The translations under genes were made by a program, and so were the position numbers. Below are positions 2,223 through 30,541 of a stretch of 64,000 nucleotides of DNA, piece after piece. Location of the stretch: NCBI GenBank assembly GCA_016787045.1, contig JAEUVA010000010.1, forward strand, positions 100,531 to 164,530, given 5' to 3'. This stretch comes from Chitinophagales bacterium. Its GTDB lineage: Bacteria > Bacteroidota > Bacteroidia > Chitinophagales > LD1. The notes under the pieces are model-generated. The model did no database searches. It saw only the letters and a list, made by a program, of their open reading frames with translations, and had not been told where the DNA came from. Positions within the stretch are counted from its first letter, which is position 1. Every line of letters begins with the position of its first letter.

Positions 2223-3677
<1,455 letters not shown>

Positions 3678-20833: not shown

Positions 20834-22186
20834 ATGTTTACCTCATACCAATCTAAAATTAAAGAAGCGCTGCTGCTGGCCTTACCCATTATTGCCGGGC
20901 AGTTGGGGCAGGTGCTTATGGGCTTTTTTGATACTGTACAAATTGGCGGCCTGGGGCATACTTACATTGCCGCCACGGGCTTTGCCAATGGCATTTATTG
21001 GGTGATAATACTGCTTGGCATGGGCGTGCTGTTTGCCGTATCGCCATTGGTGAGTGAGGCCTTTGGTGCCGAAAAAGAATACCGCGCCATAGGTGTGCTG
21101 CGCTCGGGTTTGCTGGTATCGGTAGTGTTATCGGTAGTGTTTGTGATAGTTACAGAAATTGTGCGCGCCAACTTAGATGTTTTTAGGCACCCCGAAACAG
21201 ACACTCTGTTAGGTGCGCGGTATTTGCGCGTGATTAATTACTCTACACCGTTTGTTTTCTTTTTTATGTGTGGCAAGCAGTTTTTAGATGGCATGGGCAA
21301 AACCCTGCCCGGTATGTACATTACATTGGGTGGCTTGGCGCTCAATTGTTTTTTGAACTGGGTGCTTATCTACGGCCACTTAGGCGCTCCGGCATGGGGC
21401 GTAGAGGGGGCTGCATTGGCCAGTGGTATTTCAAAATTGGCGATGACGGTGGCTTTGTTTGTGTACATTTTTCAAAGCCGAAAGGTGAAGGATTTGCAAA
21501 CGGCCTACCACAGCCAGACGGAAAATACTACTGCCGGATATACTACGCATGTTTGGCCTATACTTACCATAGGGGTACCTGCGGGCTTGCAGTTTTTTTG
21601 GGAGGTAGCGGCTTTTAGTGCCGGGCAGGTCATGAGCGGGTGGATAAGCATAGAAGCCGAAGCCGCGCACATGATTGCTATTGGTATGGCCAGCATTACG
21701 TTTATGGTCATTACCGGGTTTTCGGCTGCCGGCACTATACTCACCGGTTTTGCTTATGGCGAAAAAAATGCGGAGGAGGTGAGAAAAACAGGTGTAGCTA
21801 TTCTGCTGATGACATTAGCTACTGAAGTTGTTTTTGCGCTTGTATTTGTACTGCTGCACCGCCAGTTACCACTACTTTATACCAATGAAGTAGTGGTGAT
21901 AGAAATGGCTGCAGCCATGCTTTTGTTGGCGGCACTTTTTCAACTCAGCGATGGGTTACAAGGTGCAGCTGCGGGCTTGCTGCGCGGCATACAAGATGTA
22001 AAAGTACCTGCATTAATAGCGCTCATTTCGTACTGGGGCATTATGGTACCTGCCTGTTATTATTTGGCATTTGAAGCCCGCATGGGGCTTGCCGGCATTT
22101 GGCTGGGGTTTGTAATTGGATTGACCATTGCTGCTGTTGGCATGTGGGCACGTTTTGGGTATATGGCCAAGCGGTTGAGGTTTTAA
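20834..22186 (+). CDS. MATE family efflux transporter
   Basis: ~450 aa with 12 predicted hydrophobic helices. N-terminal LLLALPIIAGQLGQVLMGFFDTVQIG and central LLRGIQDVKVPA are typical of the MATE/NorM family. Start moved to ATG 20834. Confidence 0.8.
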   Translation: MFTSYQSKIKEALLLALPIIAGQLGQVLMGFFDTVQIGGLGHTYIAATGFANGIYWVIILLGMGVLFAVSPLVSEAFGAEKEYRAIGVLRSGLLVSVVLSVVFVIVTEIVRANLDVFRHPETDTLLGARYLRVINYSTPFVFFFMCGKQFLDGMGKTLPGMYITLGGLALNCFLNWVLIYGHLGAPAWGVEGAALASGISKLAMTVALFVYIFQSRKVKDLQTAYHSQTENTTAGYTTHVWPILTIGVPAGLQFFWEVAAFSAGQVMSGWISIEAEAAHMIAIGMASITFMVITGFSAAGTILTGFAYGEKNAEEVRKTGVAILLMTLATEVVFALVFVLLHRQLPLLYTNEVVVIEMAAAMLLLAALFQLSDGLQGAAAGLLRGIQDVKVPALIALISYWGIMVPACYYLAFEARMGLAGIWLGFVIGLTIAAVGMWARFGYMAKRLRF

Positions 22187-22246
22187 AAACTACCAACACA
22201 AACTTATACAAACAATGAGATTCGCAGTAGGATTGCATCAAATCTT

Positions 22247-22281
22247 TTTACAAATTGGGAATTTAATTCCCAATTTGTAAA
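22247..22281. repeat. 35-bp perfect palindrome ending 8 nt upstream of the ATPase ATG
   Basis: TTTACAAATTGGGAATT-T-AATTCCCAATTTGTAAA. It shares its 16-nt arm core with the palindrome at 23432-23480. Confidence 0.9.
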
Positions 22282-22289
22282 TTTGCAAC

Positions 22290-23435
22290 ATGATACCAAG
22301 AGCCATAGAACCCGTACTTAAAAAAGCACTGCGGCAATTTCCGGTAGTGGTACTTACCGGCCCTCGCCAATCGGGCAAAACAACCATAGTAGAGAACCTG
22401 GCAGGGTATAAATATGTGAATCTAGAACACCCCGATTTGCGGGAATATGCTCGTGAAGATTCCCGCGGATTTTTAAGTGAATACGGTAAAGGCAAGTTAG
22501 TTATAGACGAGGCACAATATGTACCTCAACTTTTTTCGTACATACAGGCAGAAAGCGACAAGCACAAAAAGCCGGGTAAATTTGTTCTTACCGGCTCACA
22601 AAACTTTCTGCTCCTACAAAATATTTCGCAAAGCTTAGCAGGGCGCACCGCCATTTTAGAGCTGCTGCCTTTATCAGTGGCTGAATTACAAGCAGCTGGT
22701 AAACTTCCGGCCACCTACGAGCAATTCATTTTCAAAGGCGGGTATCCACGATTATACGGAACAAAGGCCAACAAACAACTGATGATGAGCGGCTACATTC
22801 GCACTTACGTGGAGCGCGATGTGCGCCAAATCGTAAATGTGCAGAACCTTTCGTTGTTCAATAAATTTTTAAAAAGCTGTGCAGCGCGTGTTGGGCAATT
22901 ATTAAATTACAGTTCTATAGGTAATGAACTGGGTATAGACCATAAAACCATCATGAAATGGATGTCTATACTCCAAAGCAGTTATATCATTTACTTGCTA
23001 CAACCCTATCACCGCAATTTTAATAAGCGATTAGTTAAAACACCAAAGTTATACTTTTATGATACCGGCCTTGCCACCGAACTGTTGGGTTTGCAAGATG
23101 TAAAACATCTGTACACTTATCCGCAGCGAGGGGAATTGTATGAAAATCTTGTACTGACGGAGTTAATCAAGCGTAGATTAAACAACGGAACTCAGCCAAA
23201 CCTGTGCTTTTGGAGAGACAGTACGGGCAATGAGGTAGATTTTATAGAAGAAATAGGTTCAAATACCGAGGCGTATGAAGTGAAATCTGCAAAAACCATA
23301 ACTCCCACCTTGTTCAGAGGGTTAGAAACGCTCAAAGCGTTAAGTGGATCAAATATAGGGCTAAATTTAGTGTATGGTGGAGTTGAAAATACTCAGCGAA
23401 ACGGTATTGATGTTTTAAACTGGAAAGGGCTGTAG
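22290..23435 (+). CDS. AAA ATPase with a DUF4143-like C-terminal (PD-(D/E)xK-like) domain
   Basis: Walker A LTGPRQSGKTT, Walker B LVIDEAQY. C-terminal GNEVDFIEE...AYEVKSAK (D..E.K). 381 aa, which is typical of the COG1373-type architecture as I recall it. Confidence 0.7.
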   Translation: MIPRAIEPVLKKALRQFPVVVLTGPRQSGKTTIVENLAGYKYVNLEHPDLREYAREDSRGFLSEYGKGKLVIDEAQYVPQLFSYIQAESDKHKKPGKFVLTGSQNFLLLQNISQSLAGRTAILELLPLSVAELQAAGKLPATYEQFIFKGGYPRLYGTKANKQLMMSGYIRTYVERDVRQIVNVQNLSLFNKFLKSCAARVGQLLNYSSIGNELGIDHKTIMKWMSILQSSYIIYLLQPYHRNFNKRLVKTPKLYFYDTGLATELLGLQDVKHLYTYPQRGELYENLVLTELIKRRLNNGTQPNLCFWRDSTGNEVDFIEEIGSNTEAYEVKSAKTITPTLFRGLETLKALSGSNIGLNLVYGGVENTQRNGIDVLNWKGL

Positions 23436-23480
23436 TGTTTTACAAATTGGGAATCAGATTCCCAATTTGTAAAACACTAC
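23432..23480. repeat. 49-bp perfect palindrome overlapping the ATPase stop codon
   Basis: GTAGTGTTTTACAAATTGGGAATC-A-GATTCCCAATTTGTAAAACACTAC. It lies between convergent genes, so it could also act as a bidirectional terminator. Confidence 0.9.
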
Positions 23481-23506
23481 GCTCTCTTAAATCTAAAGAG
23501 CAATGG

Positions 23507-24724
23507 TCATTGCTTTATTAACTTAAAATTATACCGTTTTTCATTACTTACAATAGTTACAAAATAAATGCCTGCTCCGGTTTCTGATACATCCAGCGCG
23601 GCATCGGTTTGGTTGGCACTTAGTGTGCGGCTGAGTACAATTTGACCGTTGATATTGGTAATGCTTACTATGCTTTCGGTACCACTATATGGCAAGCGTG
23701 TGTGGAGTTGCTCGGTAAATGGGTTGGGGGAGATAATGGGATGTTCCGTTGATATTGTTTGACTGTTTGACAGCATAGATGTTTCGTCCGTTTTTGCTGA
23801 GTTTATTTCAGTTGTAAACCCACACATCGCACCTATCTTGGCCTCAAAAACAGACCCTGCATCTGCCACCTCAAACCCCGGGTTAAGTTCTATAAACTCA
23901 CCTGCCATAAATGTTACAATTCCGTGATTTCCATTAGCCGTGCCCGGAATGAGTGGCTGTATTTTAGTAGTTCCGGTTGTTTTAATTGATTTATCAGCAT
24001 ACCAGTTTTGCTCCAATTGCACTATAATTTTTGTGGTCATTAAAACCAAACCATTAAACGCCTTTACAATGTATAATCCTGAAGATAAGCCATTCAACGA
24101 TACAACGCGCGGTTCATGTGGCATTAGGTCATTTACATGCGTTTGCTTTGCTATTTTACCCTGTAAATCCAATACTACTAATTGTAGTTGCTGAACGAGT
24201 TCTGATATTTCAACATTGATAGTATTGCCCGAATGCAAAAGTGTTGGGTAAATCTTAATTGTAAGGTTGCTTGGTAAATTTTCATCGTCAAATTTTTGCT
24301 CATAAAATAAATCATCAGTTTTAGCCGCTATTGTTGTTCGAGTTATAGCACACGGATTTATTTCAGCTACAAAATCAGTTCCTGAATAGAACCCGTTATT
24401 TAACTCAATATAAGTGCCAGCGTGATAACCAACAGTAATACCATCATTTATACTTTGAGTAGAGACTATTGAGCCTGTTACCGAATAGCCATTTGAGAAA
24501 TTCAGAACCCCAAACAAATTCTCACTTGGCACACAATAATTCATTCTCACAGTAGCTGTGTTCGTTTCACTTCCATCTCTCAAATAACTAAGCAAGTTGG
24601 TGTAACTTGGAGTTAAGCAAACAAAGTAACTGGGTCCGTTGCCGCAGGTGGTCAGCCCCCTAACCCCCAAAGGGGGAATTTCTACGCAGTTGCGCTTTTC
24701 GGTGTTACTCCGGTAGTGGCACAT
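23507..24724 (-). CDS. T9SS-domain protein carrying two sorting-domain modules in tandem and no signal peptide (possible fused or decayed gene)
   Basis: An internal CTD-like block (IYPTLLHSGNT...GLYIVKAFNGLVLMTTKIIVQ) is followed by a second module that ends in a terminal CTD (ISPNPFTEQL...GIYFVTIVSNEKRYNFKLIKQ). Neither M1 nor M61 is followed by a signal peptide. Confidence 0.5.
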   Translation of the reverse strand: MCHYRSNTEKRNCVEIPPLGVRGLTTCGNGPSYFVCLTPSYTNLLSYLRDGSETNTATVRMNYCVPSENLFGVLNFSNGYSVTGSIVSTQSINDGITVGYHAGTYIELNNGFYSGTDFVAEINPCAITRTTIAAKTDDLFYEQKFDDENLPSNLTIKIYPTLLHSGNTINVEISELVQQLQLVVLDLQGKIAKQTHVNDLMPHEPRVVSLNGLSSGLYIVKAFNGLVLMTTKIIVQLEQNWYADKSIKTTGTTKIQPLIPGTANGNHGIVTFMAGEFIELNPGFEVADAGSVFEAKIGAMCGFTTEINSAKTDETSMLSNSQTISTEHPIISPNPFTEQLHTRLPYSGTESIVSITNINGQIVLSRTLSANQTDAALDVSETGAGIYFVTIVSNEKRYNFKLIKQ

Positions 24725-25181
24725 ACTTATACTTTACTTCTACTTGGTAATCGGGCGGGATGTTTTCTACAGCGCAGAACATGCTTCTTGTGCCAGGAAA
24801 CTGTAGTTGCGCAGTATCGCGTTGAATCATACTTACATCATAAATTAGCTTCTTTAGACAAGTATCTTTAGATAAACTTGCTTGAAAGGTATCTCCGTAG
24901 AAATAAGACATCTTCCCAATCATTATATACACAAAATCGGTTTCATCAATTGGGAAGGCAACCGGTGGCGAAAAGGTGCAGTCGGTTATTGAATCAATTT
25001 GAGATTTTCTTCGCATGATGTATTCATACTCGTATAGGTTGCCACCGCAAGTAAATGTATAGTACTTTTCTATAAAAGGATCAACATAGTAGGGAGCGGA
25101 GGCGCAATGCGCCTTGTCTTTACAACAGCTACCTAATAATGTAGCGACAGCTACAATTACTCCAATCGCTATTGGCTTCAT
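24705..25181 (-). CDS. hypothetical lipoprotein
   Basis: Lipobox MKPIAIGVIVAVATLLGSC followed by CKDKAHC. Its ATG overlaps the upstream TGA stop (ATGA). Confidence 0.6.
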   Translation of the reverse strand: MKPIAIGVIVAVATLLGSCCKDKAHCASAPYYVDPFIEKYYTFTCGGNLYEYEYIMRRKSQIDSITDCTFSPPVAFPIDETDFVYIMIGKMSYFYGDTFQASLSKDTCLKKLIYDVSMIQRDTAQLQFPGTRSMFCAVENIPPDYQVEVKYKYVPLPE

Positions 25182-25402
25182 TGTATAACAATTTTCTGTG
25201 TAAATGATGTTGTGGAAGTTTGCACCTTAACTATATACATGCCCTGAGCTAAATTTGCGGTGGGAACTTGTAACGGTGAGCCAAACTGAAGTTCTGCCGA
25301 CTCGGTTGAAATCACATTAACACCGTTTAAATCATAAAATTTTACTTGTTGGTGACGCATCGGCAGAGCCGAAGCTATAACACCAACAAGGGCGAAATAC
25401 AT
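25178..25402 (-). CDS. orphan T9SS C-terminal sorting domain (74 aa, likely a remnant of a cargo gene)
   Basis: VKFYDLNGVNVIS...LAQGMYIVKVQTSTTSFTQKIVIQ is a complete CTD-like block with no cargo domain and no signal peptide. Confidence 0.45.
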   Translation of the reverse strand: MYFALVGVIASALPMRHQQVKFYDLNGVNVISTESAELQFGSPLQVPTANLAQGMYIVKVQTSTTSFTQKIVIQ

Positions 25403-25512
25403 AGGGTGTTCTTTTGCTCTTCGGTGGGGTCTCTCGTGCCGAAAAACAACTCATGATGTGGCGGTTAGAACACCCACCAACAGGAAAATTACTACATATA
25501 TACCATAAAAAA

Positions 25513-25809
25513 CTACTTCAACTTTGGCATACATGTTATGCCCGGTTTTTGCTCCTGCTGCTGTTTGTCTTTTTCATTGCACACCACTTGGTGATAAGTG
25601 ATGTAGTTTGTAGGTTTTGAAATTAAATCATAGCGCATGCTGTCTATAAAAAAATTGTATGCAGCGTAGTTCGGAAACTGATCCGAGCAAATGAGTTCTC
25701 CCGTAGAAATTCTTTTCACACAATCATTCACACAGTCAAAGCACTTTTTACAGCCGGACCAAAACACCAGCAGCACACTACTTACTACAGTAATAGTTAT
25801 TCTTCTCAT
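25513..25809 (-). CDS. small Cys-rich lipoprotein (paralog of 25778-26065)
   Basis: MRRITITVVSSVLLVFWSGC lipobox, then KKCFDCVNDC...LICSD. The start could also be 25833 or 25842. The 5' end overlaps the upstream paralog. Confidence 0.55.
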   Translation of the reverse strand: MRRITITVVSSVLLVFWSGCKKCFDCVNDCVKRISTGELICSDQFPNYAAYNFFIDSMRYDLISKPTNYITYHQVVCNEKDKQQQEQKPGITCMPKLK

Positions 25810-26065
25810 ACAAATATTGAATATTTTTGACATTGTTATCACACAGCTTCACATTTTCGGTAGGAGCTACCAAGGTGCAGCCGCTATTTAGTAGGAATTG
25901 ACGAGAACCCTGCCAGTTTGCTTGCCCGGAGTAATCAGTGCTGCATATCAGGGTAGTAGCAGAGCCACATTGGTAACACTCATTTTTACAGGTAACGCAT
26001 TTAGTACAGGACTGGCTAAACAAGATTAACAAACAGGCAAAAATCAATAGTGTGGGAGATTTCAT
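25778..26065 (-). CDS. small Cys-rich lipoprotein
   Basis: MKSPTLLIFACLLILFSQSC lipobox, then TKCVTCKNECYQC...LICSTD. Its ATG overlaps the upstream TGA stop (ATGA). Confidence 0.6.
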   Translation of the reverse strand: MKSPTLLIFACLLILFSQSCTKCVTCKNECYQCGSATTLICSTDYSGQANWQGSRQFLLNSGCTLVAPTENVKLCDNNVKNIQYLYEKNNYYCSK

Positions 26066-27705
26066 TGCTTTAATATTTTAAATGATAGGTAATTTGTACA
26101 AGTAGTGAACAAGAAAACATAGTAAATGCCGCCCGGCAGTTCTTCAAGTGATATATCTCCGAATGTTTTACCGGCTGACACTAACGCTGAGTTGGCATTG
26201 TATATTTTATAATCTAAGCCGGATTTTATCTCTTCTGTAACCTCTCTTGATGAACCTAAAACTTCAATTTTTCCATCCGTTGGATTAGGCGCGACCAGCA
26301 CTTTGCACGGTTCTATACTGTTAGTAATCATTTCCTGCCAATCTGTTTTTGCATTTGGGCCGCATCCGCTTAAGTATTCATAAGTAACTGTAAATGTTTT
26401 GACTTGCATGCCCATACAATTATAAATTGCTAAATCTACAGTTGCTATATGTTGTGATTGTGTAAAATATGCAAACGGATAACCGTTCCAATATTGTGTG
26501 ATCGGACTATTGATAGATTGTATGTCTTCAAAAATAATAGCCCCTGAACTATTTTTTATCATGACATGGTACCAACCTGCACCATAGGAATAAAAAGCCA
26601 TGTTGGTGCCGAAGCAATTAGTGGGTGTAGGGGGGTAATATGGAGCACTACAGTTTAAAAATGCGCATTGATTGGCATAATCAATATTTAAACCAAAATC
26701 ATAAGCCGGATCGTCCACTGCCCCACACGGTGCAATTTCTGCTACAAAAACACCGCCCGGCTCTACAACAAACCCCGGTTGTATATCAATAAAACCCCCA
26801 GCCCTAAACTTTATTTTTCTGTTAGATTTAACTATGACAGGTCCTGTGCTCATGTTTGGGGCACCCACATCGCTGCCGGCTCTAATAAATAGCCGTCTTT
26901 GGGTATTGTTTGGTAGTTTGTCCGAAATATCTTGGTATAGCATATAGTCCCCACAACAATCTCTATAAAGTTCTACATCATCTAATTGCACGCCTATTGA
27001 TGCGCAGGGGATTTCAACATCAGATTGATCATAAACCACCAAATCTATTGCAATCCAATCGTAACCGAATTCAAAAATTTTAATAGGGTCTATGGTCACT
27101 TGCTGCCAGCTATCGGCATTTGCAGTTAAAATAGGCGCTAAATAGGTTATGGGTTTTGTGGCGTGTATCTTTCTATAGTTAGCAGCACAGCTAACAGCAT
27201 CAATGTCGCTATTCTCTGAATGATAGCTAACTTCTGTTTTAGATAATCTTACACGCAGGTAATACTTATAACTACTGTTGTATTCGTACAACCCAAAACT
27301 GCTTGACCCCGGTGCTGAAAATAACTTTACATTGGCTTTAAAGTAATATAATCCTTCATTCAAAGCGTTTTGTAAATCTTGTTGTATAAGCTCCTCTGGC
27401 GTAAAGTATACTAAAAAATTACCTGTTGTGGGTAATACGCTGTTCATAAAGGGGTCAAAATTTCTGCAGCCAGAAAGCGTTGATAGCCAATCCGGAGAGT
27501 GTATAGCGCTGGTTCCGCTTGAGGTAGACGAGGAAACGGTTTGAGTTCTTGATGTCCAATCTTTTACCTTTTCAAACTGAGCTAAGCCTGTAGGGCAATC
27601 ACCGGTTATGTTAGGTGTCTCAAAGGAGTGATTACGTATTAAGTTTTGGGATTGAGCCGTAGCCCAAATCGCAAACAACAGGGATATTGTAAGAGGAGTT
27701 TTCAT
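26062..27705 (-). CDS. secreted T9SS cargo protein of unknown function
   Basis: Signal peptide MKTPLTISLLFAIWATAQSQ. Motif GGFIDIQPGFVVEPGGVFVAEIAPCG. C-terminal CTD VAPNPTDGKIEV...GGIYYVFLFTTCTNYLSFKILKQ. Confidence 0.7.
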   Translation of the reverse strand: MKTPLTISLLFAIWATAQSQNLIRNHSFETPNITGDCPTGLAQFEKVKDWTSRTQTVSSSTSSGTSAIHSPDWLSTLSGCRNFDPFMNSVLPTTGNFLVYFTPEELIQQDLQNALNEGLYYFKANVKLFSAPGSSSFGLYEYNSSYKYYLRVRLSKTEVSYHSENSDIDAVSCAANYRKIHATKPITYLAPILTANADSWQQVTIDPIKIFEFGYDWIAIDLVVYDQSDVEIPCASIGVQLDDVELYRDCCGDYMLYQDISDKLPNNTQRRLFIRAGSDVGAPNMSTGPVIVKSNRKIKFRAGGFIDIQPGFVVEPGGVFVAEIAPCGAVDDPAYDFGLNIDYANQCAFLNCSAPYYPPTPTNCFGTNMAFYSYGAGWYHVMIKNSSGAIIFEDIQSINSPITQYWNGYPFAYFTQSQHIATVDLAIYNCMGMQVKTFTVTYEYLSGCGPNAKTDWQEMITNSIEPCKVLVAPNPTDGKIEVLGSSREVTEEIKSGLDYKIYNANSALVSAGKTFGDISLEELPGGIYYVFLFTTCTNYLSFKILKQ

Positions 27706-27707
27706 AT

Positions 27708-29273
27708 CTACTTACCTTTTTTTAGCTGCTTCTCTAAATTAATCAGATGTAATGTCAACTCCTCAATTTTAGCTAAGAGCATAGCGTTCATTTTAGCTAA
27801 ATCTATTCCTTGCTCTGTTACTTCTTGAGCGCTGGGTATTCCGGGCAGATGTTTGTTCTTTTTTACAAACTTTTCTACATCGCTCAATGGCATTAGCTTG
27901 TAATCTTTATCAAATACATAATCACTCCAATCTCCCGTAGTTTTTATAGCACACTTAAACCGCTCTGCCAGTATTCCTTTTTCTACATATAGCGAGTAGC
28001 AAGAGTTAGTGGTACAGGGTGTTGATACATTGCCTATCTGTACAGTTCCTGTAATTTCGGCATTCCCTGCAACCTTTAGTTTATCGTTCGCATTACCGTT
28101 GTGTCCTACATCTACCAACAGGTTCCCTTCCTCTTCGGTAATGATGTGCCTCGCATTCCCTGTATTGCCAACCCAACGTAGTTGAGCGTTCCAGTCAGGA
28201 GTTGCCTTGTTTTCAACTAAGTCCACATACACATCATCAGTACCATTTCTCCGCACTCCTAAACTGCCACTCACCACTAATTTATCATTCCCCCCTCCAT
28301 TGGCCACCCCCGGGTCTATTACAAAATCGCCATTGATTTCGGTAATGAGGTGGCGGGGTTGGCCGGTATTGGCCGGGTTCATAAACCGGATGGCACTGGT
28401 ACCGGTGGTGGGGCGGGTAATATCTAATGTAGTAGAGCCATCGGTATCATACAAAACCACGGTAGAGTTGGTGTTTGGGGCAATACCTATTCCAATGTTT
28501 CCATTGCTGCTAATGCGAAAATATGGGTTATCAGACGGGGTCATGGTTGGTGTTTGAGTTGGCGCAGGTTGGTCTATGTTCATCAACACCGAAAAATTTT
28601 GCGGCAATGCCCGCATGTCAAATTGTGCAAAGGTTTGCATGTCTATATCCATTGGGTAGCCGGTGGCAATGGCTCCATTGCCAAATATGCCAAAGTTAAT
28701 GCGCTCATCGGTACTGTTCACCACACCAAAGGCCGGTACAGATTTGGGGATGGTGGAATTGTTGGTGTTATCAAGAATATCATTGCGGCTGTTAATCAAC
28801 ATACATCCCCCGGGTTCGTTAGCATCTCCCACATTAGTAAATATCATTAGTATTCGCTCATCTTGGTCTTCTACACCATACACCAGATTCCCCAAAATGT
28901 CGCCACTATACAAGTCGTTATTGTACCCCTTGGTAGAAATGTGCAGGTCAATAGCCGGAGATATACCTATGCCCACTTGCCCTTTATGGTTAACTATAAA
29001 ATCGGAAACAGTGGTAGGCCCGGCTTCGGTGTGTGCTGCCTCAATGTAGTTTCCCGGAGTTTGGCAATCAAAATCCTGTTTAAGCAATAGGTTAGGTCCA
29101 CTACAGCCACCAAGCACATGCAACTTGCCCGATGGATATATAGTGCCAATGCCCACATTCGTACCATCGTCAAAAGCACTGCTGCCGGTTTGCCCGGTTT
29201 GGTAAAAGCCCTGTGTGTAAGCGGTGCTCATACATAGTGTTGCGAGCAGAAAGGTAAGTAATTTTTGTTTCAT
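27708..29273 (-). CDS. secreted tail-fibre-like protein with a conserved helical C-terminal domain
   Basis: Signal peptide MKQKLLTFLLATLCMSTAYTQ (start moved to ATG 29273). Repeated GIG motifs (NVGIGTIYPSGKLHV, QVGIGISPAIDLHI, NIGIGIAPNTNSTV). C-terminus DWSDYVFDKDYKLMPLSDVEKFVKKNKHLPGIPSAQEV...LLAKIEELTLHLINLEKQLKK. Confidence 0.65.
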   Translation of the reverse strand: MKQKLLTFLLATLCMSTAYTQGFYQTGQTGSSAFDDGTNVGIGTIYPSGKLHVLGGCSGPNLLLKQDFDCQTPGNYIEAAHTEAGPTTVSDFIVNHKGQVGIGISPAIDLHISTKGYNNDLYSGDILGNLVYGVEDQDERILMIFTNVGDANEPGGCMLINSRNDILDNTNNSTIPKSVPAFGVVNSTDERINFGIFGNGAIATGYPMDIDMQTFAQFDMRALPQNFSVLMNIDQPAPTQTPTMTPSDNPYFRISSNGNIGIGIAPNTNSTVVLYDTDGSTTLDITRPTTGTSAIRFMNPANTGQPRHLITEINGDFVIDPGVANGGGNDKLVVSGSLGVRRNGTDDVYVDLVENKATPDWNAQLRWVGNTGNARHIITEEEGNLLVDVGHNGNANDKLKVAGNAEITGTVQIGNVSTPCTTNSCYSLYVEKGILAERFKCAIKTTGDWSDYVFDKDYKLMPLSDVEKFVKKNKHLPGIPSAQEVTEQGIDLAKMNAMLLAKIEELTLHLINLEKQLKKGK

Positions 29274-29376
29274 AAGTAGAGGATATTTAAGGTGAGGAAA
29301 AAACAAGCTACTACCCACCGCACAGCATTGGTGATAAGTACCCATAAAAACAACCGGTAAATTACAGAGAAACTGC

Positions 29377-29390
29377 GGGGGGGGGGGGGG
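29377..29390. repeat. G14 homopolymer (C14 on the operon strand) ~100 nt upstream of the surface-protein operon start
   Basis: Fourteen consecutive G in an otherwise mixed, AT-leaning intergenic region. Candidate slipped-strand phase-variation tract. Confidence 0.9.
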
Positions 29391-29646
29391 CAGAGTTTAC
29401 ACCACCGAAATTTGCCAAACAAGTAAGGGGAGTAAAAAGCAGCATGGTGGTGTGTTTGTAGCTGCAAAGCAAAGCAGGTATTTTGTATATGTCAACAAAA
29501 ACGCATGGTTTTATTTCTGCACTTGTAGTGCAAAATTAAATTTGGATGGTATGTGTTTTTTGTTTTATTAGTGTGCGAGCAAACATGTAAGTAGCTCTGA
29601 GCTAACCTGATGTTGAATTGCGTCAAATAAACTCTTACTATCGGGA

Positions 29647-29693
29647 GCATGTTGGCGCAGTTTGTGTACATGGCCAAGCGGTTAAAGTTTTAA
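29647..29693 (+). pseudogene. remnant of a MATE transporter 3' end
   Basis: It translates as SMLAQFVYMAKRLKF*, compared with GMWARFGYMAKRLRF* at the end of the intact MATE gene. 39/47 nt are identical. An in-frame TAA lies 7 codons upstream, so no gene body remains. Confidence 0.7.
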
Positions 29694-29728
29694 TTACTCT
29701 TGCTTAATGCCATTGGCAAAAAAAATGG

Positions 29729-30541
29729 TTACTCCTGCTTGATGCCGTTAGCAAAAACGAGTATTTTCTCTTCGCCTTCTTTGCTGATAAAGGTGCCTTT
29801 GCCATTGCGTTTGTTATCGGTCCAGGTGCCGGTAAACATTTCTCCATCGGCCCAGGTAAAAATGCCTGTGCCATGCATTTTTCCGTCTTTAAACTCGCCT
29901 TCGTATTTATCGCCATTGGCAAATAAAAATATGCCTTTACCGGTGCGGTTGTTGGCTTTGAATTCGCCCATGTAGGTATCGCCATTGGCAAAAGTCATTT
30001 TGCCGAAACCCTCTTTTTGGTCTTTTAGAAAATAACCCTCGTAAACATTTCCATTCCGATAAAAATATTTGCCTTTACCGGTTTTCATGGCCTGCACAAA
30101 TGCACCTTCATATTTTTCGCCATTGGCATAAACCATGGTGCCGGTGCCGCTAATTATTCCATTGGTAAAATCTCCGGTGTATTTGTTGCCGTTGGCGTAG
30201 GTGTAAGTACCCCATCCGCTCATGACATCGGCATTAAACTGGCCTACATAGTTATCGCCATTCGGAAAGTCATAATTGCCACGGCCATGGCGTTTATCAT
30301 TTACCCAATCGCCAAAATAGCTGGAGCCATCTTTAAAAATGGCGCGGCCAACTCCGTGGCGCATATCGTTTTGCCATAGGCCGTCATACAAAGAGCCATC
30401 ATAATATATAGCGCGGCCTTTGCCGTGTTTTTTACCGTCTTTGTAGTCGCCTTCGTATTTGCCGTTAATGTATAGCTGCTCCTGCGCGGTGGCAGAGCTT
30501 ACGGTGAGTATTAGAGCAATCAGGGGTAGCCAGTTTTTCAC
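29729..30541 (-). CDS. secreted MORN-repeat protein
   Basis: Signal peptide MKNWLPLIALILTVSSATAQ. About 10 repeats of the Y.G.[WF]..[DG]K.HG.G type. GTG start. Confidence 0.8.
   Translation of the reverse strand: MKNWLPLIALILTVSSATAQEQLYINGKYEGDYKDGKKHGKGRAIYYDGSLYDGLWQNDMRHGVGRAIFKDGSSYFGDWVNDKRHGRGNYDFPNGDNYVGQFNADVMSGWGTYTYANGNKYTGDFTNGIISGTGTMVYANGEKYEGAFVQAMKTGKGKYFYRNGNVYEGYFLKDQKEGFGKMTFANGDTYMGEFKANNRTGKGIFLFANGDKYEGEFKDGKMHGTGIFTWADGEMFTGTWTDNKRNGKGTFISKEGEEKILVFANGIKQE

Follow-up and report, generated by a model that had tools for sequence, protein, structure and literature searches.

Promoter-spacer tracts of simple sequence are familiar from the poly-G/C runs of Neisseria porA, opc, and fetA, the TA repeats of Haemophilus hif, and the T-tract rheostat of Helicobacter sabA. 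Closer to the locus described here are the fim2, fim3, fimX, and fimN promoters of Bordetella, in which a conserved fim box is followed by a C-stretch of approximately 7–20 nt that varies between paralogues and between strains (PMC1891110; Willems et al. cited there). We have analyzed a 64,000-nt window (contig C6, positions 100531–164530) of the 3.62-Mb, 43% G+C, 51-contig genome of an uncultured Chitinophagales bacterium of the phylum Bacteroidota. Its ribonucleotide reductase shares at most 84–86% identity with the enzymes of MAGs labelled Chitinophagales, Chitinophaga, or Bacteroidetes, which is the basis for this assignment. The subject of the study is a hypermutable tract of exactly 14 C on the sense strand, located on the minus strand at 29377–29390 (G14 on the plus strand) upstream of genes for surface proteins. 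It forms the end of a conserved non-coding promoter/leader module, here termed module A, which has three copies in the genome. Contigs are numbered in the style C1 to C51, copies of the module are named by their contigs (C6 for the window copy, contig C10, and contig C35), and tract lengths from C8 to C15 give the number of C.

In the reading that we favor, with moderate confidence, this slippage-prone tract gives the mRNA a poly-C stretch at its 5′ end or close to it, and the tract length dials the expression of an accessory operon for an adhesin and cargo of the type IX secretion system (T9SS). The tract would then be a contingency locus whose closest described counterpart is the fim C-stretch. 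As in fim, an upstream element (module A, in three copies) is common to paralogous promoters, each followed by its own variable poly-C, and the cargo is of the adhesin or fibre kind. Unlike fim, the locus belongs to another phylum with a −33/−7 type of promoter, and a −7-like box immediately precedes the tract, with none at a fixed distance after it. Moreover, the genes downstream of the three copies are not all paralogues, and a fim-type activator is represented here only by a candidate site, a conserved palindrome (29519–29531).

With porA, opc, fetA, hif, and sabA the locus has in common a homopolymer in the regulatory region of a surface protein and slipped-strand mispairing; in those genes the tract separates the −35 and −10 elements or is found a little upstream of them, whereas the C14 tract lies outside the −33/−7 spacer. 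In Haemophilus influenzae hmw1A, a heptamer repeat transcribed in the 5′ untranslated region (5′-UTR) pairs with a G-rich arm and expression is graded (PMC12721329). The present locus likewise has an intergenic repeat upstream of an adhesin gene and a downstream G-rich segment predicted to be able to pair with it, but the repeat is a homopolymer, not a heptamer, and the pairing is only predicted, in two of the three copies. Reiterative transcription at pyrBI, pyrG, and codBA senses nucleotide pools at homopolymeric starts of 3–8 nt (bioRxiv 10.1101/2021.05.08.443277 = PMC8812562; PMC12709180). If the candidate promoter P2 described below is used, a start within a homopolymer would provide the condition for RNA slippage at initiation; the known runs, unlike the C14 tract, are not length-variable DNA, and the link between the two is purely conjectural.

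Within the phylum, promoter inversion by invertases is the only phase-variation mechanism described for Bacteroides in a 2025 review (PMC11868660), which agrees with the statement in the initial annotation that phase variation in Bacteroidota is mostly invertase-driven. Our literature searches found no report of slipped-strand variation in Bacteroidota. If the C14 tract switches, it resembles the invertible promoters of Bacteroides, which belongs to the same phylum, in controlling surface structures stochastically and differs from them in having no bracketing inverted repeats. The tract described here probably acts as a mutational dial of expression; dials of this kind are familiar from pathogens but scarcely documented in Bacteroidota, and what sets this one apart is that it terminates a promoter module that is strongly conserved and reusable.

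Rarity and authenticity of the tract

The run was read as exactly 14 G, as originally described, and its distance to ATG 29273, previously given as approximately 104 nt, was counted as 103 nt between the two. Over the whole 3.6-Mb genome, the number of G/C runs drops approximately 5.7-fold with each added base for lengths of 3–7. Extrapolation of this fit predicts 0.009 runs of at least 12 and 0.0003 runs of at least 14 genome-wide; five and two are observed (lengths 12, 13, 13, 14, and 14), which makes a chance origin very unlikely, as had been supposed.

The probability that the tract is an artefact of sequencing (poly-G from two-color chemistry) or of mis-assembly is, in our estimate, negligible. 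The source genome is a metagenome-assembled genome (MAG), and obviously artefactual G-runs of 20–60 nt are present in the assemblies of some relatives. However, the tract lies in the middle of a 178-kb contig between unique flanks, it was recovered in two further Logan assemblies from different runs (SRR12425364, with C14, and DRR438507, with C15), and a tract is found at the equivalent position in all three paralogous modules. Together these observations effectively rule out the assembly artefact that the initial annotation had named as a possible refutation. In several MAGs of the genus (L035, L036, L051, and L054), G or C runs of 20–60 nt, which often cluster or sit at the ends of contigs, probably arose as sequencing artefacts, and because of runs of this type simple poly-G counts across MAGs are unreliable. 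Genus-wide counts of a poly-C12 pattern, which are also inflated by overlapping matches, were unusable as statistics, and individual loci only were used.

Length variation between samples

Tract lengths were compared between independent assemblies, in which the loci were located via exact-protein look-ups. The SRR12425364 assembly is the same as the window over 6 kb, including the C14 tract, and probably represents the same data. In DRR438507 the tract is C15, with one synonymous single-nucleotide polymorphism (SNP) in 2,529 nt; this contig begins 4 nt before the tract. More variation was found at a sister tract (C15:103974–103985; loci L135, L136, and L137), also C on the sense strand, which lies 78 nt upstream of a gene for an aromatic ammonia-lyase (PF00221) that is followed by an asparagine-synthase-like gene. 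This tract is C12 in the MAG and SRR12425364, C9 in SRR30909894 (on a 75-kb contig), and C8 in DRR438492, and its printed flanks (approximately 170 nt) are identical in all samples.

Tracts of this species are therefore polymorphic in length between samples; for the C14 tract itself the variation is minimal, and the comparison across isolates that had been proposed gives a difference, C14 versus C15, in two independent samples only. Slippage hypermutability of these tracts is well supported by the sequences, and the suggestion that the C14 tract is a substrate for slipped-strand mispairing is borne out by a length change at one SNP per 2.5 kb and by the three lengths of the sister tract between identical flanks.

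Several Logan contigs break at related tracts. At the tract of the contig C10 module, the left contig ends in GCGC and the right one begins with C12, and at the contig C35 module the break lies 10 nt before the tract. The contigs of three DRR runs (L129, L133, and L134) start inside a tract on contig C47 (C47:72770–72782), which is G13 on the sense strand, lies at codons ~30–34 of a gene for a secreted protein of approximately 1200 residues, where it immediately follows the signal peptide, and is in frame in the MAG. Such breaks would be expected if lengths are heterogeneous, but sequencing error could also cause them, and as a sign of heterogeneity they are only suggestive. In two other samples, the contigs (L131 and L132) begin only 155 nt upstream of the ferredoxin gene that neighbors the C47 tract, so that their coverage ends outside the tract region.

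Module A

Module A occupies 29391–29572 on the minus strand. The other copies are C10:32149–32334, with a C13 tract at C10:32335–32347, and C35:5694–5880, with a C10 tract at C35:5881–5890. The module is approximately 180–190 nt long and has the tract as its 3′ edge, at the same position, in each of the three copies. Pairwise identities are 67–77% over 180 columns, and the alignments before the tract score z = 14–22 against shuffles, whereas the stretch from tract to ATG has no significant similarity in any pair of copies (z = 0.8–1.8). Constraint or homology ends at the tract.

The proteins behind the contig C10 and contig C35 copies are paralogues (49% amino-acid, 56% nucleotide, and 42% third-codon-position identity), to which the gene behind the window copy bears no relation. 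Conservation is therefore higher in the non-coding module than in the coding sequence that follows it, which points to purifying selection or gene conversion. Module A is strongly conserved between its copies, appears to be species-specific, and precedes unrelated secreted-protein operons three times. BLAST found no copy outside the source genome in 60 relatives, a covariance model found none in 66 genomes of the family, and an IUPAC pattern matched neither the JGI metagenomes nor any of approximately 185,000 species genomes. Metagenome contigs also gave no match to the exact sequences flanking the tract, and the comparison with Rfam gave no family, only chance matches with E = 7–9.

An inverted repeat, GCACT-ACA-AGTGC (29519–29531, minus strand), lies approximately 24 nt upstream of a TTGACA motif and is a candidate regulator site. 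Its stem is kept in the contig C10 copy by a G-C to A-T change (ACAC...GTGT) and is weakened in contig C35.

The gene behind the contig C10 copy (C10:32440–32850) is broken relative to the 621-aa contig C35 paralogue (C35:6093–6600), in that it carries a TAG in frame, its frame changes, and a stop directly precedes MTGNVFSTL. To judge from its sequence, it is either the head of a pseudogene or a set of separate small open reading frames (ORFs). No domain is known in the 621-aa family; LysM is present in the next gene.

Promoter candidates and leader

The source genome uses promoters of the Bacteroidota type, with TAnnTTTG enriched on the sense strand 10–40 nt upstream of ATGs. The initial annotation could not place a convincing TTG/TAnnTTTG promoter relative to the tract. 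Two candidates, P1 and P2, can now be placed via module A; the P2 box of the window copy matches the consensus at only 3–4 of 6 positions.

Candidate P1 (29465–29495, minus strand) consists of TTGACA (29490–29495), a 20-nt spacer counted from TTG, and TTGCTTTG (29465–29472). The stretch TTGACATA is invariant in all three copies of the module; the −7-like box matches at 5 of 6 positions in C6 and contig C10 and is degenerate in contig C35. A start at P1 would yield a leader of approximately 190 nt that holds a stem-loop and then the tract. Candidate P2 (29392–29422, minus strand) has a TTG (29420–29422) followed after exactly 20 nt by a −7-like box that ends 1–4 nt before the tract, namely TAAACTCT in the window copy, TAGCTTTC in contig C10, and TAGCTTTA in contig C35. 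The TTG and the TA of the box are invariant, with no indel between them in any copy, and the box scores 5/6 in contigs C10 and C35. A P2 start would fall in the first bases of the tract, and such a start would most simply explain why conservation stops there.

The same arrangement is seen at unrelated tracts: at C15:103974 (TAGATTTC) and C22:39640 (TAATTTTA) a 5/6 box ends 0–1 nt before the C-run, the distance at C15:103974 being 1 nt. Overall, a −7-like box of at least 5/6 ends 0–4 nt before the tract at three of approximately seven independent loci with C on the sense strand (module A, through its contig C10 and contig C35 copies, and these two unrelated tracts), compared with a background of 9.6% that refers to a wider interval, a box ending 0–10 nt upstream of a random position. 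The tract lies outside any −33/−7 spacer, which makes a classic spacer ON/OFF switch unlikely, and a position at the transcription start or in the 5′ leader appears more likely.

A stem-loop with arms ACACCACC and GGTGGTGT (29399–29453, minus strand) is predicted between P1 and the tract and is part of the consensus fold. Its arms differ between C6 (CACCACC/GGTGGTG) and contig C10 (CACCACA/TGTGGTG), a difference that, in our own reading of the alignment, would be compensatory. The non-conserved leader from tract to ATG (29274–29376, minus strand) contains a G-rich patch, GCGGTGGG (29314–29321). Pairing of the tract with this patch, or with GGGTGGG, is predicted in C6 and contig C10 and is absent from the prediction for contig C35.

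Searches at the locus found no sigma-70 promoters and no intrinsic terminators. An attenuator formed by a stem of C-tract and G-patch followed by a U-run was considered and rejected, with the U-run lying 10–11 nt off the stem and the fold not significant. An invertible promoter was likewise rejected: there are no bracketing inverted repeats beyond 11-nt chance matches, and all copies and assemblies agree in orientation.

Other tracts in the genome and its relatives

The genome contains 26 G/C runs of at least 8. Of the 14 intragenic runs, 13 fall within ORFs opening with a signal peptide; the remaining one, a C9 (C11:259400), occupies codon 6 of an ORF of 863 residues (C11:256839–259427) that in our own reading probably encodes GyrA. 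All eight unambiguous upstream tracts (approximately six independent loci when paralogues are collapsed) are poly-C on the sense strand. This bias suggests a role tied to transcription or RNA rather than that of a symmetric DNA spacer.

A second shared module was found at C21:34421–34430 (C10) and C21:161189–161196 (C8), the two copies sharing 82% identity across approximately 150 nt that extend to either side of the tract. Upstream of the tract the module carries a GTACAC/GTGTAC palindrome, and 7–8 nt downstream of it a conserved AATATTTTG box; both copies precede large ORFs. By its sequence, this module looks like a classical promoter tract.

In four other species of the genus (L041, L047, L048, and L050), a conserved start, ATGAATTTTTC, is followed after 60–80 nt by G12–G14, and in some of these by a GC-rich hairpin after the tract and tandem peptide repeats (e.g., PSNKLTE). 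The frame is continuous in L048, while L041 has a stop in the ATG frame shortly past the tract and another frame that stays open. On this evidence, intragenic switches conserved across species are possible. In another genome (L010; G021:C11), a G13 run at 3103–3115 lies near the 3′ end of a gene for an XRE-type helix-turn-helix regulator, divergent and upstream of a gene resembling the first gene behind the C14 tract.

Genes of the strain-variable segment

The gene that follows the tract, ORF1 (27708–29273, minus strand), encodes 521 residues with a typical signal peptide, MKQKLLTFLLATLCMSTAYTQ, and a conserved helical C-terminal domain. The 521-aa product is called in public assemblies, and a 545-aa version from ATG 29345 is not on record. 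Domain searches with ORF1 against Pfam, NCBIfam, PHROGs, and PDB sequences gave no match. It has 374 homologues, mainly via the C-terminal ~120 residues, mostly in Chitinophagales, Chitinophagaceae, and Flavobacteriia and also in Sphingobacteriales. Some of these are named trimeric autotransporter adhesin or TMF family or have collagen or YadA-head repeats; because of these labels and repeats we consider ORF1 to be a secreted fibre- or adhesin-like protein. A distant ORF1-like fibre gene from another family of the order (L013; G055:C153) has a C11 on the sense strand (376–386) approximately 47 nt upstream of its signal-peptide ATG.

ORF2 (26062–27705, minus strand) encodes a T9SS cargo protein of 547 residues that has a coathanger-stack domain; two small Cys-rich lipoprotein ORFs (25778–26065 and 25513–25842) follow on the same strand. 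Between ORF4 and ORF5 there is a 57-nt REP-like palindromic element (TTTCGCCCTTGTTGGTG...CACCAACAAGTAAAA; 25341–25397, minus strand), one of four in the genome (the others being C20:148753, C20:229025, and C49:217165). The distal part of the row consists of ORF5 (24705–25181) and ORF6 (23507–24724), both on the minus strand; ORF6 also has a coathanger-stack domain, and T9SS sorting domains occur only in ORF2 and ORF6 of the row. The initial annotation had proposed a seven-ORF surface-protein operon. Four tightly packed ORFs (29273 to 25513) do follow the tract, but then come the REP-like element and two more ORFs, and because of this palindrome the proposed operon is probably two units. That the downstream genes are those of surface proteins is upheld by the adhesin- or fibre-like ORF1 and the T9SS cargo ORF2 and ORF6.

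Module A and the operon lie in an accessory segment of approximately 7.5 kb (22187–29693) bracketed by a duplicated 3′ end of a MATE gene. The duplicate (29647–29693) marks the right edge and corresponds to an original at 22140–22186 (83% by BLAST over 47 nt). In three other samples, a REP-like element directly follows the stop of the MORN-repeat gene in place of module A, with flanks 99.8% identical, which indicates that the cassette bearing the tract is strain-variable. Beside the duplicated MATE end, at 29696–29760, the terminal ~30 nt of the MORN-repeat gene occur a second time shortly past its stop (TTACTCTTGCTTAATGCCATTGGCAAAAA versus TTACTCCTGCTTGATGCCGTTAGCAAAAA), so that the whole convergent gene junction seems, from its sequence, to have been duplicated at the island edge.

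Discussion

The C14 tract has several of the features by which a contingency locus is recognized: it is a long, over-represented G/C tract, its length differs between near-identical strains, and surface determinants lie downstream. In the mechanism that we favor, replication slippage would alter the tract length, as in the 14 versus 15 at the locus and the 10 and 13 in the paralogues. The tract would be the initial transcribed region of P2, whose box abuts it, or part of the 5′ leader of P1, and a change in length would alter promoter escape or the fate of the leader RNA. By one possible route, the G:C-rich initial transcribed DNA would hinder bubble extension and promoter escape; by another, initiation at the homopolymeric start might be reiterative; or the effects may arise in the leader, through pairing with the G-patch or loading of Rho. 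The outcome would be heritable, reversible, and graded expression, in the manner of a dial rather than of a strict spacer-type ON/OFF switch. The initial annotation had proposed that the poly-G tract switches the surface operon on and off; a hypermutable tract in front of surface-protein genes is what we find, while switching of the spacer type is unlikely for a tract outside the −33/−7 spacer. The transcription start, the effect of length on expression, and its reversibility are what we infer.

Several observations weigh against this mechanism. The C14 tract is represented by two independent samples that differ by one base, and lengths of assembled 14–15-mers are error-prone. Length variation is known from assembled sequences, as a difference between samples. 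P1, P2, and the transcription start were placed from sequence alone; the P2 box of the window copy, at 3–4/6, is the weakest of the three; and the predicted fold of the leader is no better than that of shuffles (z = −1.1). A leader of at least 104 nt is atypical for this genome, in which −7 boxes are usually 10–40 nt from the ATG, and transcripts beginning with C are unusual. No OFF state was seen in the genome: the three intragenic tracts checked (C4:437, the C47 tract, and C4:140305) are all in frame. Furthermore, three full-length ORF1 orthologues (32–38% identity) have only G7 or C7 upstream, and a long tract is therefore not a conserved feature of the ORF1 family.

Among the alternatives, the least improbable, though unlikely, is that module A carries activator sites for a core promoter downstream of the tract, the length of which would determine the spacing of activator and RNA polymerase and their helical phase, as in fim. 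The core promoter would be the TAATTTAC/TATATTTT boxes 12–14 nt after the tract or a proximal promoter 20–45 nt before the ATG. A conserved box followed by a C-stretch and common to paralogous promoters is the layout of fim2, fim3, and fimX (PMC1891110), most genes of this genome have short leaders, and the tract of the second module lies after a palindrome and 7–8 nt upstream of the conserved AATATTTTG. The post-tract boxes themselves speak both ways: they occur 12 nt past the tract in C6 (4/6) and 14 nt past it in contig C10 (5/6), but contig C35 has none and no box at a fixed distance is common to the three copies, the post-tract sequence is not conserved, and the −33 TTG of such a promoter would sit inside the C-run. 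In addition, a pure DNA spacer has no need of the strict sense-strand C bias. That bias would fit a tract that acts as RNA. Transcription would then start at P1, and in a leader of approximately 190 nt with stem-loop and poly-C, either pairing with the G-patch (similar to hmw1A, with RNase III) or Rho loading would tune processing or termination. The palindrome upstream of P1 is placed as an activator site would be, the arms of the stem-loop vary between C6 and contig C10 and yet, in our reading, are complementary, pairing of the tract with GCGGTGGG or GGGTGGG is predicted in both, and a transcribed simple sequence repeat pairing with a G-rich arm has a precedent (PMC12721329). Nevertheless, the −7 box of P1 is not conserved in contig C35, the pairing is predicted neither there nor at the C15:103974 tract, the fold is not significant, and no terminator-like site was found, and we consider a purely leader-based mechanism rather improbable.

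It is also conceivable that the tract mutates rapidly and has no regulatory role, for example as a microhomology joint remaining where recombination or gene conversion spread module A, tolerated in an unconstrained leader. Homology between the copies ends exactly at the tract, the lengths of 10, 13, 14, and 15 vary freely with no obvious optimum, and there are ORF1 orthologues without a tract, all of which would fit. However, long tracts decay fast unless selected, and five runs of at least 12 persist; long tracts are concentrated upstream or at the 5′ ends of genes for secreted proteins, with a strand bias; and all three copies of the module keep a long tract. A neutral tract is, in our view, very unlikely. 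A bolder extension of the favored mechanism, which we regard as rather doubtful, would make module A a portable phase-variable promoter cassette, in which the tract serves both as the start region (a G:C clamp or reiterative site that dials escape) and as the recombination joint to unrelated cargo. Together with the second module and the intragenic tracts, such cassettes would constitute a small "phasome" in a free-living, non-pathogenic member of the Chitinophagales.

In summary, an environmental, uncultured member of the Chitinophagales maintains a collection of G:C tracts, polymorphic in length, at the 5′ ends of genes for surface proteins, and at least one set of them belongs to a promoter module that can be reused and whose sequence is more strongly conserved than the genes behind it. 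If tract length tunes expression, contingency-locus behavior would reach a free-living member of a phylum in which it is unexpected, and promoters of the Bacteroidota type would gain a compact natural "dial". The consensus sequences of MAGs would then hide micro-heterogeneity that is functionally relevant. The mechanism, if the tract does act at the transcription start or within the leader and not as a spacer, would be the more interesting part.

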